Of a stretch of 63,032 nt of DNA, positions 54,413 to 60,400 are shown in pieces. Each line of letters opens with the position of its first letter. Position 1 is the first letter of the stretch. Location of the stretch: the NCBI GenBank assembly GCA_031441465.1, contig JANOEP010000064.1, positions 1 to 63,032 on the forward strand. The letters are read 5' to 3'. The position numbers were made by a program. This DNA comes from a bacterium (GTDB taxonomy: Bacteria > Krumholzibacteriota > Krumholzibacteriia > LZORAL124-64-63).

Positions 54413-57400
54413 GCACATCCTGGCCTTCGAGGGGGACAGCCAGGCGCGGTGGTTCGAGGGGAACTGGTCGGATTACGAGGAGGACCGGCATGCCCGGCTC
54501 GGCCTCGACGCCGATCAGCCGCACCGGCTGCGCTACAAGAAGCTGATCCGCGGCTGATCCGGTGATCGGTTGGGTCCGAAAACAAGAGCCCGCGTCCACG
54601 GGGACACGGGCTCTGTTTTTCGGGACCGGCCGGCGGTCAGCGCCAGGCGGCCTTGACCTCGCCCCAGCTGCTGTCGGCGTTCGGGGTCACGCTGCCGGCG
54701 ACCTCGATCAGGAAGGCGGCGAAAACCGGCCCGACCGCCTGGTTCGCAGCGGCGTTGGGGTGGGAGTCGTCGCTGCTGTGCGAACGCTCGTACTCCCAGC
54801 GCAGCATGTTGGCCGTCGCGGTGCCGTCGTCGGGCTTGGCCAGGCGGCCGAAGAGGTCGAAGAAGCGCACGTTGTCGTGGCCGGCCAGGAAATCCGCGCT
54901 GCCCAGCCAGACGGCGAAGGCCCGGGCCCTGGCGGCGTCGTCCTGGTCGGTGATCAGGCGGTGCCGGGGCGGTTGCGAAATGACGACGAAGATCTTGTCG
55001 GGGTGCTCGTCGAACACGTCGCGCATCGCCAGGTACCAGGTCTTGTACTGGGCCAGTTCGGCGGCGCTGCCGATATCCGAAGCCGGGTAGCAGGACTTGA
55101 AGGCGATCACCTGGTGGTTCTGGAGGATCTGCGCGCGCGCCGCGTTGGCGGTGGTCCACAGGGTGTAGAGCCCGTCGGGGTCGGTGTTGTCCCCGGGGAT
55201 GTCGTAGCTCTCCCCGGTGTAGCCCCCGGCGGGATTGCGCAGGCCGATCGCGTTGTAGTCGTGGTCCCAGAACTGCACCGGCACGCCGCGGCTCTGGTTG
55301 AGCTGGGCGATGGCGGTGCGCATGCCGCCCTCGTCGACGAGGTTGCGGCCGGTGGAGTGGTGCAGGAACAGGACATTGTCCAAGGCTGCCACGGGCGAGG
55401 CGACGGCCGTCGCGAGCAGGATGGACAGCAAGATCGTGCGGATCAGGTGCATGGGAATCCTCCTGGATGCATCGGATTCGGCATGATAGCGGAAAACTTG
55501 AGGAAAAACCACTTATAAAACAGTCAAGGGGGAGCCGGAGCCCCCCCAAGGCTGTCGCATTGACTGGAAATGCGCGGAAACGAAAGGGTCGATGAAGAAG
55601 TTGTTGCACCTTCCCGTCGTGCTGTCAGCTGCAGGCAACGTACGGATTGCCGAACCGCGGCACAAGAGCAGGTGCGATGTTATTTTTCGGACTCAAGACC
55701 CGAGGTGGAGGTTCAGCAGCGGCAGCCAACGGGTGCCGCTGCGGTTGTTGCCGGCGTAGTTGAGCAGGCCGAGCTGGACCCCGTGCAGTTCGGCGGCGTA
55801 GTTGACGATGCCGATCTGCAGCCCTTGCACGCCGACATCGAAGCGGTTGTACGCCCCGACTCCGACCCCCGCCAGGACCTCGCCGCGCAGGTACGCCCCG
55901 CAAGCGGCCAGACCGGCGAAGCGGTCGGCGCGCAGGCCCCCGCCGGCGAGGGCGAGCCCGGTCAGCTCCTGGCCGCCGACGCCGAGTCCGCCGATGAACA
56001 CACCGGTCATCCGTCCACCGCCGACGCCGAGCCCGCCGGCGAACACGCCGGTCATCCGTTCGCCGCCGACGCCGAGGCCCCCGGCCACGATGCCCGTCAT
56101 GTCCTCGCCGCCGAACCCCAGCCCGCCCAGGCCGAGGCCCGTGAAGTCGTCGCAGCCGGCGCCCAGGCCGCCGACCGCCACGCCCCGCATCCGATCCGCA
56201 CCGCAGCCCAAGAGGTTCAGCGTGACGCCGTCGATCTCGTCGGCGGCCGTGCCGGCCAGACCGAGGCTCAGGCCCTGGATGCGGCCGCCGGGTTCGTCGG
56301 CGGGGGCCCACAACGAGACGGTCACGCCCCGGATCGTCTGCAGGTCACGGTCGCGCAGGTTGAAACGCAGTCCTGTGAACGTCTGCGAATTGCCGAAGGA
56401 CAGACCGGCGCCACGCACGGGCAGGTCCAGGGAACCCGCGACGGCGGGCACGGCCGCCGCGAGCGACAGCAGCAGCGCGGCAAGCAAGGGGTGGGCGCGG
56501 GGGGCACGAGGCATGGGCATGACGGACCTCCGGGGGCGGCATCGGGCAACCAGAGCAGCGATGATTGGTGTTGAGACGCAATGCGGATCGGCGAGTTGCT
56601 CCCGCATGATGGGAATCCCGGGCCTCGGTCAGCAAACGGCCCCGATCCGCAGGGACCGGGGCCGTTTCAGGTCGTGCCGACGGCGGCGCGATTACCAGCC
56701 CGACCGCTCCTGGCGCGGCTCGCGCGGGCGCGCTTCGTTGACGGTCAGCGCGCGACCGTCGAAGTCCTTGCCGTTCAGTTCGTCGATGGCGCGGCGGCCG
56801 GCGTCGTCTTCGGCCATGATCACGAAGCCGAAGCCGCGGGGGCGGCCGGTCTCCTTGTCGGTGATCAGGGTCACGTCCTCGACCTGGCCGTAAGGGACGA
56901 AGAGAGCCTTGATCTCTTCCTCGGACGAACGGAAATTGAGATTGCCCACATAGATCTTCACTTGATCATCCTTTTGCTGGCCGGGACCGACGGCGGGACC
57001 ACTCGCGGGAACCGGAACGCCGTCGCTGGCGGAATCGGGAACGCGGCGGAGCCGCGGGATCGTCACGAAATCTATCGTGCTGAACGGCAATCCACAAGCC
57101 GCAGGGATGAAAAAGAGATAGGGACGTTACCTCGGTCGGGTCAGAATCGACTGACCAAGCGCAGTTCGACTCCGGTGAAGTCCGGCACCAGGTAACAGGT
57201 ACCCGAGGTGCAGGCGGTGCCGCCGCGCCGGCTGCCGGCGAACAGCGCGGCTTCGTGGTGACGGTTCAGAGGCGCCACCGCCACGGCTCCGATCCAGTGG
57301 CGGGGCTCCGTCTCGACGACGTCGAAGGTCAAGGGATCGTCCTTCTCGTCCGGATCGTTCGAGAATTCGGCCTGCAGGGCCAGCGTGCCTTGGCCCGCCC

Positions 57401-60400
57401 GGTCCACCCCGAGACCCAGGAAGATGTTTTCGAAGGCTGACACCTCGCCGAAGGTCGTTCGTTCCGCGCGCTGGTGCTCGGCGTTCAGGCGGAGGCTCAG
57501 CCCCCCACCGAATTCCCGGCCCACGGCGAGGCCCGCCGTGCAGTGGTCGGTGAGCCCCTCGACCTCGTCGCAGCCGGTGGCGGCGAAGACTTCCCAGTGC
57601 CAGAGTGCGAGCGGGTCGCCTTGCAGGGCGACGACGTCGAGTCGGTATTGCTTCAGGCCGTTGACTTCGTTGGCGGCCCGGGCTGATTCGACCTGGAGGG
57701 CCAATTCGCCGGGCAACGAACCCATCAGCGAGATCTGGCGGCCGTGCTCGCCGCCGGCGAGCAGGAAATGGGACATGCGGTTCAGCAGGTGCTGGCTCAT
57801 CTCGGGCACGAGGTTGGGCGGATCGTTCCAGCCGAGGGCGAATCCGTCGTAGTCCTTGGTCTCGAAGCTGGCTCCCCAGCGCCCGACGCTGATCTGGGTC
57901 GCCGTGTAGAAGGCGTGCGGGGTCGTCGCGCCGGTGTCGAGCCCGTCGCCCAGGGGATCCCAGGACTGGCCGGCGTACTCGGCATAAGCCTGCAGATCGA
58001 GGCCGCGCGCCGCCAGCGACGGCGCCAAGCGGGCGGCGCGCAGCGTCAGGTCGGTCGACGCATACTCGGCGAGTTCCGGCGATGAACCCGGGAGCTGGCG
58101 TTCGCTGCGCAGGTAGCCGGCGCCCAGGTCCAGCGCCGGGTGGAGCGTGAAGGTCGCGTGGCCGCCTCCGACGTGGCCTTCGCGGCGGGGCAACGCGACG
58201 ATCCCCGGTGGAACGTCGGGGTAGCGCACCGGTTCGCCGCCGAACAGCAGCGCCGAAACCGGTCCCCGGTTCGCCTCCAGGATCACGCCATCGAGGCTGC
58301 GGGCATCGGCGTACTGGGACGGCGGGAAGACGGCGTCGCGCACGACGCCCCCCAGTTCGAAGGCGCGGAACAGCAGCCCGCGGCCGAGCGTGGCGAAGCC
58401 GTCGCCGAGCCGCAGGCGCAGCCCCTCGTCCTCCCACTCGGCGTACTTCAGGGTGACTTCGTCGTAGCGGGCGGGCAGGAAGCCCTCGTCGCGGGATGGC
58501 TGGTAGCTCTCGGCGCGCAGCCCCGCACGCAGTCCGTCGCGGCTGTACACGAGGTCGAACCGGTCGTAGATGCCCGTCATGGCGTTCGTTTCGGTCAGGG
58601 GGTCCCGTCCCGCCTGCCAGAGCAGGAGGTTCGAGGCCTGCACCGAGCCCGACGAATCGCCGGCGCCGGCGAGCGTTGCCAACGGGTGGACCAGTCGTGA
58701 GCACAGCAGCGAGGCGACGCCGAGCGCGACGAGCCGTGACGTCTTCATTCGGCGGTCCCAGGCGCCGGGTCCAGCAGCGGCAACAGTTCCTGTTCCAGCA
58801 ACCGGACGTCGCCCTCCCGGTAACCACGGTGCAGAGAGCGGATCCGGCCTTCGCGATCGATGAGGAAGGTCATGGGAATGGCCTCCGCCCGGTAGAGCTG
58901 GGACGCCCGCTTCTCGGTATCGATCAGGATCGGGAACGTCAGGCCCAGCGCGCGGGCCGTGGCGCCGATCTTGGGGCGGTTGCGCGGCTCGTCGGTGCTG
59001 ACCGCCAGGACGGTCAGACCGCGCGGCGCGTAGCGGTCGTGCAATTGCTGCAGCTCCGGCAGGGCCTGACGGCAGGGGCCGCACCAGGTCGCCCAGAAGT
59101 CGAGGATCACCGGCCCCCGCTTCAGGGCCTCGCCCAGGACGACGCGATCTCCGGCCACGGTCTCGAGCGAGAACGCGGGGGCCGGCCCGAGGTCCGGTTC
59201 GGCCGTCGTGGCGTCTGCCGCACACCGGGACGCCACGGCCAGGGCGAGCAGCGCGGCGATGATGCTGGCGGAGCGCAGCTGGCCGGAGCCTGACGATGCC
59301 ATGCGACCTCCTACTTCAACAGGGTGACGAAACGCGACTGGCTCCGGCCGTCGACCGTGAGTTCGACGAGGTAATTGCCGCTGACCAGAGTACGGCCGCC
59401 AGCATCACGACCGTCCCAGTCGGCCACGTAGTCCCGCGCGCCGTCGTGGTGCCCGTCGACGAGCGTGCGCAGGACACGCCCCTGCACGTCCAGGATCCGC
59501 AACCGCACCTGCCGGCTGCCGTCGCCGTCGATCCGGTAGGCCAGGGTCGTGCTCGGATTGAAGGGGTTCGGGTAGCCCGGCCGCAGGCTGAACCCGTCGC
59601 GCGACGGTGTACCGGCAGCGGTGGGCAGGTCCGCCAGGGCGAGGTTGATCGCGGCGGTCGTCAGGGCCAGGTTCCAGCCGCTGCGGCGGAAGGTGATCAG
59701 CCCGTCTCCGCCGACGACGAAGAAGATGTCGTAGGTGCAGGCGTAGCTCGAGCCGATGCCGGCGGCGGCCGCGCCCATCAGTGCCGGGTAGGTGATGCCG
59801 GTGACCGAGAGGAAGGAATTGGTCTGGCTGAGGTTGCCGCCCCACATTTCCAGGCCGAGAGCCTGGAAATCCGGTCCGGCGAAGCTGTTGGCCATCGTCT
59901 GCGTGGACGGACCCGCCGCCCGGCAGCTGCTTCAGCCATGGCCGAACATGAACAGGAATTTCACCCTGCCGTCGTAGTCGGACAGGCTGTGTGTCTGGCC
60001 GGTCGTGCTCTGGAGGGTGAAACCGGCGGCGACGTCGCCGACCTGTCCGGTCGCTCCCGCAGTGCCGGCCACCAGCGCCAGCGCGGCGACGCCCAGCGCG
60101 GCCGCTCTCGTGAGGGGAGATCTGGTATTCATGGCCAGTCCTTTCAGGATCAGTGCTTGCCGCACGCCTAATACAAGATAAAACACATCCTTAATATAGA
60201 TTCATAGTTCCACTGTGGCAATCGCCCCAATTCTCGGTAGGAGTAGGGATGACGGCTTCTGGAAACCGGAGTATCTTTCGCCTTCATTCTGGACGCCCCC
60301 CCCTCGGACCACGTGGAGGAACCCATGTCCGGCGACCGCGATCTCATCCAGCCGAAGCCCGACATCGTCGCGCGCGCCCACATCTCCTCGATGCAGGAGT

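Follow-up and report, generated by a model that had tools for sequence, protein, structure and literature searches.

The locus at positions 57141 to 60132 of the window (the whole 63,032-nucleotide stretch analysed here) carries a reading frame broken by a TGA codon, followed by genes for a redoxin and a DUF6029 protein, which raises the question of whether the broken frame is a functional selenoprotein gene and whether the 3 products work together. Under translation table 11, the first gene (hereafter sel) is cut into 2 ORFs, one of 84 aa ending at the TGA (59932..60186) and one of 194 aa (59311..59895), and public gene calls contain the truncated 194-aa fragment only. Reading TGA as selenocysteine (U) yields a single frame of 273 aa plus a TAG stop (59311..60132(−)), as the initial annotation had it, with U67, encoded at 59932..59934(−), lying within the motif G-H-G-U-S-S-C and aligned with the first cysteine of CxxC. 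The predicted product, Sel, comprises a signal peptide, a ResA/TlpA-like UxxC domain and a C-terminal domain of type A of type IX secretion systems (T9SS). The candidate Sec-type signal peptide (residues 1 to 27, 60052..60132(−)), judged by eye from the translation, ends in ...LVAGTAGA before TGQ, and the model has low pLDDT at residues 4 to 27.

Across 61 loci (the window and 60 fetched loci), TGA occupies the column of residue 67 in 65 of the 68 tblastn matches that cover this residue, and U falls into one shared column in all 30 of the first homologues, larger counts than those on which conservation of the codon had originally been claimed. In 65 sequences, at identities of 30% to 85%, the frame is maintained both before and after the TGA. 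One true orthologue, at locus L113, has cysteine at the Sec position (GYACAPC) within the same gene module, and forms with CxxC and the architecture of Sel are common in public data (25/25 full-length homologues examined); in the family alignment (A3), the equivalent of U67 (C67) and C70 are both invariant. The redoxin and DUF6029 genes themselves each stop at TGA, which is thus an ordinary stop codon in this operon.

The genome encodes the full machinery for Sec decoding, with profile search scores above the respective cut-offs for SelA (437 bits), SelB (359 bits), tRNA-Sec (67.8 bits, anticodon TCA) and SelD (342.7 bits), the latter itself holding one TGA. Downstream of the sel TGA, a SECIS-like hairpin (59905..59921(−)) spans nucleotides 14 to 30 counted from the U of UGA and has a 6-bp stem and the loop CGGGU. 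In the clade of the window taken together with 7 distant relatives (18 sequences), it is paired in 84.3% of alignment cells; the figure for the other clade, in which 3 pairs show compensatory changes, is 85.7%. The observed percentage paired and covariation score were reached by none of 500 shuffles. Loop codons are GGT (24), GGG (6), GGC (0) and AGT (12), the background usage in these genes being 61% GGC, 13% GGT and 7% AGT. A hairpin is found at the same offset in selD of this genome. The stability of the hairpin region was not above controls in dinucleotide shuffles (z of 0.11), synonymous-codon shuffles gave a mean z of −0.51 with p ≤ 0.05 in only 5 of 65 sequences, and Rfam returned no match. 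Such unremarkable folding energy, together with the truncated public calls, would fit a TGA acting as a real stop, with the locus being a pseudogene or 2 small genes. Nevertheless, we assign this reading a negligible likelihood, considering the conserved frame on both TGA sides, the cysteine orthologue and CxxC homologues, the complete Sec machinery and a modelled fold that is complete only when the TGA is read through. By sequence, sel is a genuine, unannotated selenoprotein gene, because the machinery, the conserved TGA, the Cys orthologue and the hairpin located 3′ of the TGA coincide, and selenocysteine is presumably inserted at U67.

The thioredoxin-fold domain of Sel (residues ~31 to 170, 59623..60042(−)) matches AhpC-TSA (PF00578) over residues 31 to 120 with 33.6 bits (cut-off 26), which corroborates the reported match spanning the Sec residue. 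The AF2 model (pLDDT 84.8) shows a thioredoxin fold with ResA-type additions, and its best Foldseek matches are to ResA (2h1b; TM 0.88, rmsd 1.7 over 135 residues); AhpE peroxiredoxins are also among the matches (TM ~0.73). The structure 3kcm is matched with an E-value of 1.4e-7, and in this alignment U67 and C70 pair with WCPPC, U67 standing at the first Cys, which places UxxC where such proteins have their CxxC motif, at the start of helix 1. The VPE of 3kcm (cis-Pro loop) faces a gapped C-T-.-Y-D in Sel, with no Pro at that position; P116 of Sel is invariant, but part of another motif. The site follows the pattern G-[HY]-x-U-x-x-C, in which the Gly 3 residues ahead of U is invariant, whereas peroxiredoxins have Thr or Ser 3 residues before the peroxidatic Cys. 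Thus, of the AhpC/TSA-like, peroxiredoxin-like UxxC fold originally assigned to Sel, the thioredoxin fold with UxxC stands, whereas the likeness is to ResA/TlpA rather than to peroxiredoxins, an identity at odds with the ResA-best fold and the invariant Gly. A peroxidase of the AhpC/TSA type, clearing envelope peroxides, is a very improbable role for Sel, even though the AhpC-TSA score and the AhpE fold matches would be in its favour: the ResA matches, the alignment of U67 with the CxxC of TlpA-like proteins and the Gly at −3 all speak for a ResA/TlpA-like UxxC thiol-exchange protein, with U67 replacing the first Cys of CxxC.

Compared with the extracytoplasmic oxidoreductases ResA, TlpA and CcmG, Sel shares the fold, the position of the active site and a candidate export signal. 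It differs in that Sec replaces the first Cys, that the N-terminal membrane anchor gives way to a sorting domain at the C-terminus and that the usual cis-Pro position is not clearly kept. Prokaryotic UxxC thioredoxin-fold selenoproteins, as described in a review, resemble Sel in fold, in having Sec first in UxxC, in the existence of Cys homologues and in presumed redox function. In the text of this review, the terms T9SS, sorting, secret-, signal peptide and periplasm do not occur. Sel may yet coincide with one of the families listed there, as it is set apart from them by description rather than by sequence comparison with the named accessions. None of the NCBIfam selenoprotein models covers the Sel family, the best being WAxxUGC_long and TUGYCR, each matching 1 of 17 members far under the cut-off.

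The C-terminal β-sandwich sorting domain (residues 181 to 273, PNPFNP...TLLK; 59314..59592(−)) scores 27.6 bits with FlgD_ig (cut-off 27), 14.4 bits with Por_Secre_tail, under the cut-off, and 22.3 bits with TIGR04183, just below the cut-off of 23; the FlgD_ig match and the TIGR04183 score reproduce those reported before. At the family level, the domain is carried by 16 of 17 aligned members, with TIGR04183 matched by 13 of the 17 and the PorU tail by 16, which bears out its initial assignment to the T9SS type. The same domain stands at the very end of 109 ORFs in the genome, 103 of which have K or R as the last residue. SprA (470.8 bits) and PorV (55.6 bits) are encoded in the genome, and a gene adjoining that of PorV encodes a PorU-like sortase (403 bits, under the cut-off of 420). 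GldM, GldL and PorP gave no match in the genome, and likewise none in control genomes, and GldK was matched only partially (65 bits, cut-off 350); the GldK search also gave matches in 3 control genomes, all under the cut-off. The T9SS machinery of this genome is thus detected in part only, and the C-terminal domain of Sel is, at the family level, a T9SS type-A tail through which Sel would probably be exported.

The sorting domain is missing from 4 relatives that are linked to the module (L108, L109, L111 and the Cys form L113); the module can therefore not depend on surface export. These relatives, the undetected motor and ring components of T9SS, and the apparent fixation of the redoxin to the barrel (see below), which would call for a mobile donor, are compatible with a periplasmic Sel that carries electrons between CcdA/DsbD of the inner membrane and the redoxin bound to the barrel. 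In that case, the C-terminal domain would have been added later, or would serve binding and not secretion. We regard such a shuttle as improbable, since the domain is present in nearly all aligned members and mostly matches the T9SS type-A model, terminates so many other ORFs of the genome and is accompanied by SprA, PorV and the PorU-like sortase. Surface display or release of Sel by T9SS is the reading that we retain.

The gene for the TlpA-family periplasmic redoxin (Red; 58745..59302(−), 185 aa, WCGPC) starts 8 nt past the sel stop and is preceded by GGAGG, and that for the predicted DUF6029 outer-membrane β-barrel (57141..58748(−), 535 aa, C-terminal ...SRF) starts with an ATG (58748) overlapping the TGA stop of red as ATGA, so that the span 57141 to 60132 covers the whole operon. 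Consistent with the initial description of a Cys-type redoxin and a DUF6029 protein following sel, Red matches AhpC-TSA with 89.7 bits and the barrel matches DUF6029 (PF19494) with 52.5 bits (cut-off 27), PF19494 being carried by public relatives as well. A sigma-70-like promoter match, TTGCCA-17-TATATT (60193..60221(−); 10/12 consensus, a consensus match only), lies ~60 nt upstream of the start codon (ATG) of sel and is the only one in 56900 to 60400 (1 found, 0.2 expected).

Of the 61 loci, 21 retain the order sel-redoxin-DUF6029 and 3 have the genes rearranged yet adjacent, whereas 20 lack redoxin and DUF6029 within flanks of at least 2.5 kb; the other 17 are undecidable because their contigs are short. 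Hence, the conservation of the module claimed earlier (6 of 9 loci) holds for 24 of 44 decidable loci, in 3 gene orders and over identities from 85% to ~31%, and does not extend to the other 20. The Sel tree contains a well-supported clade of 35 rows without any module-linked member (22 without the module within their flanks and 13 undecidable), and all deep branches are among module-linked forms. Genomes of the module-less clade encode a fused redoxin-DUF6029 protein elsewhere. The module thus goes with only part of the Sel family.

This distribution bears on whether Sel works independently, as an oxidoreductase that is T9SS cargo and acts on extracellular or cargo disulfides, with its adjacency to the redoxin-barrel pair reflecting shared regulation only and no physical or electron-transfer link. 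Such a cargo protein has a precedent: HBP35 of Porphyromonas gingivalis is, according to the parts of 2 reports available to us (PMC2907840, PMC3120885), a thioredoxin-motif T9SS cargo secreted by the Por system, likened to Sel here by description rather than by sequence comparison. It differs from Sel in having CxxC, in belonging to Bacteroidota and in being tied to haem use, and the same parts of these reports describe no redoxin-barrel partner for it. The loci without the pair, their grouping in the module-less clade and the many public CxxC forms of the same architecture also favour independence. Nonetheless, the adjacency survives 3 gene orders and identities as low as ~31%, the genes are tightly packed (8-nt gap and ATGA overlap), and the module-less clade still retains the fused redoxin-DUF6029 in its genomes. 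We therefore consider independence of Sel rather unlikely and favour a role for Sel alongside the redoxin-barrel pair.

Fusions and a predicted complex indicate that the tight pair is Red and DUF6029, Sel being a third, looser member. The CGPC active site of Red (C74, C77; 59072..59083(−)) is invariant in 24/24 orthologues, and DUF6029 has an invariant CX4C (C513...C518; 57195..57212(−)) on a short β-hairpin of the barrel, which is present in all 29 DUF6029 ORFs sampled elsewhere in the phylum. In 22 of these 29 ORFs, a WCxPC redoxin is fused in the same frame. The fusion noted previously on contig C43 of this genome is real, with Redoxin at residues 255 to 380 and DUF6029 at 442 to 559 of a single frame that runs off the contig end, and a further fusion is found in the public database (P0230). 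Structure prediction of DUF6029 yields an outer-membrane barrel of ~24 strands, the nearest folds being the usher barrels FimD and PapC (TM ~0.5). For the Red-barrel complex, the prediction, run on custom-made alignments, reached an ipSAE of 0.88, which is the model's own confidence, against 0.00 for the best of 3 controls; of 157 solved complexes, 116 attained the ipSAE mark used, as did 2 of 215 mismatched pairs. Prediction runs share at least 95% of contacts (partner pLDDT 87), and the predicted interface includes Red residues 71 to 75 (the active-site WCG) and barrel residues 515 to 517 (the hairpin tip).

DUF6029 (PF19494) has been put forward as a porin associated with the export of polysaccharides, and PMC9603273 reports that Wzi-like barrels resemble it by HHpred. 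The DUF6029 protein of the window shares the outer-membrane β-barrel with this proposed porin but, in the predicted structure, differs in its ~24 strands and usher-like fold and, in sequence, in the invariant CX4C. Being fused to or encoded beside a TlpA-like redoxin, it may have a redox role rather than one in polysaccharide export.

The operon, the CxxC redoxin, DUF6029 and the C43 fusion thus lend support to the envelope thiol/selenol redox module first proposed. On balance, we think it probable that the 3 genes form one operon for envelope thiol/selenol-disulfide exchange, with Sel exported by T9SS and Red plugging the DUF6029 barrel. Sel would be made with selenocysteine at the attacking position of its ResA/TlpA-type UxxC site, exported by its signal peptide, handed by the sorting domain to T9SS and then displayed on the cell surface or released. 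Red, a periplasmic TlpA-family CxxC reductase, would be docked as a plug at the periplasmic mouth of the barrel, forming with it a fixed unit that is one polypeptide in paralogues; Sel may partner this unit by thiol exchange or act as its terminal oxidoreductase on the surface side, where Sec would confer speed and resistance to over-oxidation. Both the substrate and the direction in which electrons would move are conjectural in this scheme. The unit formed by redoxin and barrel is more novel than the selenoprotein, and its mode of action is inferred. In a speculative and fairly doubtful extension, Red and DUF6029 may together form a conduit that carries redox equivalents through the outer membrane, as DsbD does in the inner one. 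Reducing power would pass from CcdA/DsbD to the TlpA-like redoxin that plugs the periplasmic mouth, on to the CX4C hairpin, roughly at mid-height of the barrel, and finally to the T9SS-displayed UxxC selenoprotein. The likeness to DsbD/CcdA, an inner-membrane cysteine-pair relay of reducing power, would be one of logic only, a membrane cysteine pair between thioredoxin-fold partners, as the 2 systems differ in membrane and in fold (β-barrel versus helical) and share no homology. Should the conduit exist, a surface selenol/thiol catalyst could be kept reduced, or could have extracellular disulfides or chalcogen compounds as its substrates. More generally, the gene for a selenoprotein tagged for the cell surface, next to that for a thiol enzyme that seems to plug an outer-membrane pore, hints at redox handling at or across the outer membrane in a bacterium of an uncultured phylum. 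A CcdA/DsbD membrane domain (161 bits), a candidate electron source, is encoded in the genome.

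Under translation table 11, the minus strand of the window holds an 84-aa ORF (59932..60186) that stops at a TGA, followed by a 194-aa ORF (59311..59895). Reading through the TGA (59934-59932) recovers the frame described in the initial annotation, a single 273-aa protein (59311-60132, minus strand; hereafter Sel) with 1 TGA and with U67 in the motif G-H-G-U-S-S-C. The genome, which is 96.8% complete in 74 contigs, encodes SelB (359 bits), SelA (437 bits), SelD (342.7 bits), and a tRNA-Sec (67.8 bits) with the anticodon TCA. Many full-length relatives of Sel turned up in the 208 genomes searched from the class Krumholzibacteriia, and U fell into a single alignment column in all of the first 30 loci. 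Sixty loci were fetched from 58 genomes, making 61 with the window; across these, TGA is present at residue 67 in 65 of the 68 tblastn hits covering that residue, bearing out the earlier report of a TGA in the same column among homologues. Three hits carry a Cys codon at this position: 2 are cross-hits on the neighbouring redoxin gene, and the third (locus L113) is a true Sel orthologue with Cys (GYACAPC) within the same three-gene module. Protein conservation extends on either side of the TGA down to approximately 30% identity, and the redoxin and DUF6029 genes downstream both end at ordinary TGA stops. Thus, a pseudogene or a changed genetic code can be ruled out for practical purposes. At least 59 of the 208 genomes encode the family, yet in the public protein collection it is reduced to the 194-aa fragment following the TGA, named "hypothetical" or "FlgD Ig-like," and curated selenoprotein models include none for it. 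The closest relatives come from records labelled Candidatus Krumholzibacteriia or simply "bacterium."

Several related observations concern TGA usage in these genomes. SelD of the window's genome is itself a selenoprotein (G000:C25:35277-36200, plus strand; 1 in-frame TGA, ...KSAG-U-AAKLG). A relative at locus L114 (G163:C164, 798-848, plus strand) has TGA in place of the resolving Cys codon too (U-W-R-U), so that its site reads UxxU. Tandem duplicates of sel occur in L076, L078, L085, L105, and L108, with TGA in both copies; in L078, L085, and L108, at least 1 copy is short and lacks the C-terminal tail.

Folding energy does not support a SECIS element: the 71 nt around the sel TGA, folded with a simple model, show no extra stability over dinucleotide shuffles (z 0.11), and synonymous-codon shuffles gave a mean z of -0.51, with p ≤ 0.05 in only 5 of 65 sequences. 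We therefore relied on the conservation of base pairs and on codon bias. An Rfam scan of window positions 57000-60400 returned zero matches at E ≤ 1. In an alignment of 18 sequences, comprising the window's clade and seven distant relatives, with positions counted from the U of UGA, a 6-bp stem (nt 14-19 and 25-30) closing the loop CGGGU has 84.3% of its cells paired, with double changes from G-C to U-A among them. In the other large clade (43 sequences), a hairpin occupies nt 22-27 and 33-39; 85.7% of its cells are paired, and 3 pairs have changed on both sides. For both hairpins, none of 500 shuffles matched the observed percentage paired or the covariation score, and every slid control scored lower. 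Codon use in the loop is strongly skewed, with GGT (24), GGG (6), and GGC (0) for Gly and AGT (12) for Ser, whereas elsewhere in these genes GGC accounts for 61%, GGT for 13%, and AGT for 7%; as the sequences are related, these figures are not independent. The best hairpin in selD of the same genome covers nt 13-33 and has its loop at nt 21-23, compared with nt 14-30 and a loop at nt 20-24 in sel; the SelB-binding loop of Escherichia coli fdhF has this offset of approximately 20 nt. A SECIS in sel is likely, though not proven.

The initial annotation had described Sel as an AhpC/TSA-like UxxC protein. The thioredoxin fold with UxxC and the AhpC-TSA match (33.6 bits, residues 31-120) stand, but fold and motif place the protein elsewhere within this fold. 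The AlphaFold model, built with 17 homologues (mean pLDDT 84.8), has a thioredoxin-fold domain at approximately residues 33-167, then a linker and a beta-sandwich at 181-271. Its best solved matches are ResA structures (TM 0.88 on target, rmsd 1.7 Å, 135 columns), with AhpE peroxiredoxins lower (TM approximately 0.73). The best PDB sequence match is the TlpA-like 3kcm (E 1.4e-7), in which C-P-P-C is aligned with U67-S-S-C70, and the Gly three residues before U is invariant. The fold, the 3kcm alignment, and the invariant Gly argue against an ordinary peroxiredoxin, a reading we rejected, and identify Sel as a predicted thiol:disulfide oxidoreductase of the ResA/TlpA type whose attacking residue is Sec. 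Sec at this position would allow fast exchange and resistance to irreversible oxidation. By eye, the N-terminus looks like a Sec-type signal peptide. A profile search of 1.84 billion representatives found many full-length proteins of 255-285 aa, and in each of the 25 that were read, CxxC occupies the position aligned with UxxC and the same tail follows; proteins that pair CxxC with this tail are thus widespread, and Sel is the Sec variant of their architecture. The third Cys of Sel, C131 (window 59740-59742, minus strand), is frequent among the Sec forms, in the context YACTYD or YNCxYD, and missing in these 25 CxxC forms; aligned with 3kcm, C131 takes the place at which TlpA-like proteins normally have their cis-Pro loop, facing the active site.

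The C-terminal part of Sel matches FlgD_ig (27.6 bits) and, below the cut-off, Por_Secre_tail (14.4 bits). Its TIGR04183 score of 22.3 bits, 0.7 bit under the cut-off of 23, was obtained again, as were the other domain matches reported earlier (AhpC-TSA and FlgD_ig). The assignment of a type IX secretion (T9SS) C-terminal domain, which falls short for Sel taken alone, is supported at the level of the family: TIGR04183 is matched by 13 of the 17 aligned members (best E 8.7e-10) and the C-terminal tail of the sortase PorU by 16, the exception being the tail-less Cys form. A profile of the tail matched 122 ORFs in the genome; in 109, the domain lies at the extreme C-terminus, and the last residue of 103 of these is K or R. 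Records labelled Bacteroidota, KSB1, Calditrichia, Marinimicrobia, Latescibacterota, and others also contain related tails. Among the T9SS components, the genome encodes SprA (470.8 bits) and PorV (55.6 bits), the latter adjoined by a full-length PorU-like gene (403 bits; cut-off 420). Searches for GldM, GldL, and PorP in the genome gave no match, and GldK matched only partially, in its FGE-like part; however, no control genome matched the first three either and three control genomes matched GldK, all under the cut-off, so these results are not evidence of absence. Sorting of Sel by T9SS appears to be the best reading. The same tail is present on other ORFs of the window (24492-24728, 27490-27804, and 50270-52726), which is thus rich in putative T9SS cargo.

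The gene for the redoxin, Red (58745-59302, minus strand; 185 aa, WCGPC, AhpC-TSA 89.7 bits), starts 8 nt past the TAG stop of sel and is preceded by GGAGG; its relatives carry the NCBI name "TlpA family protein disulfide reductase." The TGA stop of Red shares ATGA with the ATG, at 58748, of the DUF6029 gene (57141-58748, minus strand), which encodes a protein of 535 aa (52.5 bits) with the C-terminus ...SRF-TGA. A sigma-70-like promoter match, by consensus only, lies approximately 60 nt upstream of sel and is the only one in 56900-60400. The three genes look like one operon. By eye, a small RRM-type RNA-binding protein is encoded downstream (56692-57090, minus strand) and an acetyl-CoA synthetase-like gene lies upstream in divergent orientation (60313 onward, plus strand); a ClpA-like reading on the minus strand near 61684-62715 falls within a long plus-strand ORF.

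The gene order sel, redoxin, DUF6029, proposed earlier to be conserved in relatives, is kept in 21 of the 61 loci, and 3 more have the genes adjacent in other arrangements (redoxin-DUF6029-sel in L107 and L109, divergent in L108), but both partner genes are missing, within flanks of at least 2.5 kb, in 20; the remaining 17 are on contigs too short for a call. The redoxin immediately precedes DUF6029 in every arrangement. In a maximum-likelihood tree of the thioredoxin domains, midpoint-rooted for drawing only, the module-less forms fall almost entirely into one well-supported clade of 35 rows (22 without the module, 13 undecidable, 0 with), and module-linked forms are found on all other branches, the deepest of which come from three other families of the class. 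This pattern fits an old linkage that was lost once, on a tree whose root is not established. For the module-less clade (L074-L106), clustering revealed a conserved large ORF (approximately 800-1300 aa), lying approximately 1-4 kb from sel on its upstream side, in 24 of 39 loci; neither strand gives a Pfam match, the ORF lacks a sorting domain, and by eye its same-strand reading looks like an antisense artefact. ORF calls made by retaining the longest non-overlapping frames were unreliable at this G+C content.

The redoxin and the DUF6029 protein appear to form a unit of their own. DUF6029 was found in 56 of 121 sampled genomes of the phylum. Its orthologues have exactly two invariant Cys residues, C513 and C518 (CX4C, 23/23 sequences), and end in Phe (22/23) or Tyr (1/23). 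The AlphaFold model is a large, presumably outer-membrane, barrel (pLDDT 79.6, pTM 0.75) in which 24 long strands were counted; a short hairpin (510-514, 517-521) that holds the CX4C lies between the final two of them. Among solved structures, the 24-stranded usher barrels FimD and PapC come nearest (TM approximately 0.5); Wzi-like porins with HHpred similarity to DUF6029 have been described, with a suggested role in polysaccharide export, in the available text of PMC9603273. The previously noted fusion on contig C43 of the window's genome (G000:C43:20868-22562, plus strand) was recovered, with a redoxin (residues 255-380) and the start of DUF6029 (442-559; profile 48-174) in one frame that runs off the contig end. 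A DUF6029 piece at the end of C11 (G000:C11:137441-138556, minus strand; profile 129-532) is probably the rest of this gene; as the profile positions overlap, the two contigs are probably neighbours. The public collection contains a 643-aa redoxin-DUF6029 fusion (P0230). Among the 29 ORFs with a DUF6029 match in the 30 loci listed from the sampled genomes of the phylum, 22 are same-frame fusions with a WCxPC redoxin, and in all 29 the CX4C is equally far from the C-terminus.

Structure prediction supports binding of Red to the barrel. The complex of Red (36-185) and DUF6029 (32-535) reached an ipSAE of 0.88, against 0.00 for the best of 3 controls; 116 of 157 solved complexes attain this mark, as do 2 of 215 mismatched pairs, a calibration that is only rough given that our own alignments were used. 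The runs share at least 95% of contacts, with a partner pLDDT of 87. The predicted interface includes Red A71-G75, with the active-site WCG, and barrel residues 515-517 at the hairpin tip. It would lie mostly at the periplasmic ends of the strands, which agrees with the redoxin being N-terminal in the fusions.

A CcdA/DsbD membrane domain (161 bits) on contig C10, adjoining another ResA-like gene, indicates a periplasmic reducing pathway in this genome. In the likeliest mechanism, which is inferred, Red would plug the barrel permanently from the periplasmic side and hold its active site close to the barrel Cys pair; Sel would be exported to the cell surface, where Sec at the attacking position would suit an exposed enzyme; and the three proteins would exchange disulfide or selenenylsulfide bonds. 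In the boldest reading, Cys pairs would relay reducing power through the outer membrane, from CcdA to Red, to the CX4C, and to Sel. Alternatively, Sel may meet the redoxin-barrel unit from the periplasmic side, as argued by four module-linked relatives that are tail-less (L108, L109, L111, and L113). The three-gene system would bear on the question of how reducing power reaches the outer membrane of Gram-negative cells, or the space beyond it, and the finding would matter most for DUF6029, a domain of unknown function that gains a concrete, testable redox role.

Sel combines two traits that are known separately, those of UxxC selenoproteins with a thioredoxin fold and of T9SS cargo of the thioredoxin type. 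Consistent with the caveat in the initial annotation that UxxC oxidoreductases are an established selenoprotein kind, a review of the prokaryotic selenoproteome lists, in its available part, UxxC "Prx-like," "thiol-disulfide isomerase-like," and "Redoxin family" selenoproteins (PMC13188914); Sel may overlap with the latter two, and that part of the text does not mention T9SS, sorting, secretion, signal peptide, or periplasm. HBP35 of Porphyromonas gingivalis is a known thioredoxin-type T9SS cargo, carrying a thioredoxin motif according to the available parts of PMC2907840 and PMC3120885. The literature searched contained no paper joining selenoproteins with type IX secretion, none on Krumholzibacteriota with selenocysteine, and no published selenoprotein work on the phylum. 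The combination of both traits, in this phylum, appears to be new, and a Sec enzyme bound for the cell surface would widen the known working sites of selenoproteins.

A second kind of selenoprotein is present in the class. Locus L205 (G163:C400) contains two tandem ORFs, 1126-3219 and 3223-5151, both on the plus strand. The first (approximately 660 aa) combines N-terminal repeats, a beta-propeller by eye, with a thioredoxin-like domain, whose in-frame TGA lies in FFANWUPVC, and a T9SS-type tail; the second shares the repeats, has an FFANLUPVC domain, and leaves the fetched stretch before any tail. At least 5 other genomes have comparable open frames of approximately 690 aa, each with 1 TGA. 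Finally, L181 and L187, from records labelled "uncultured bacterium," encode distant thioredoxin-fold proteins with 24-28% identity to Sel and TGA at the same position (FFAPGUPVC), and L181 also has the C-terminal tail.
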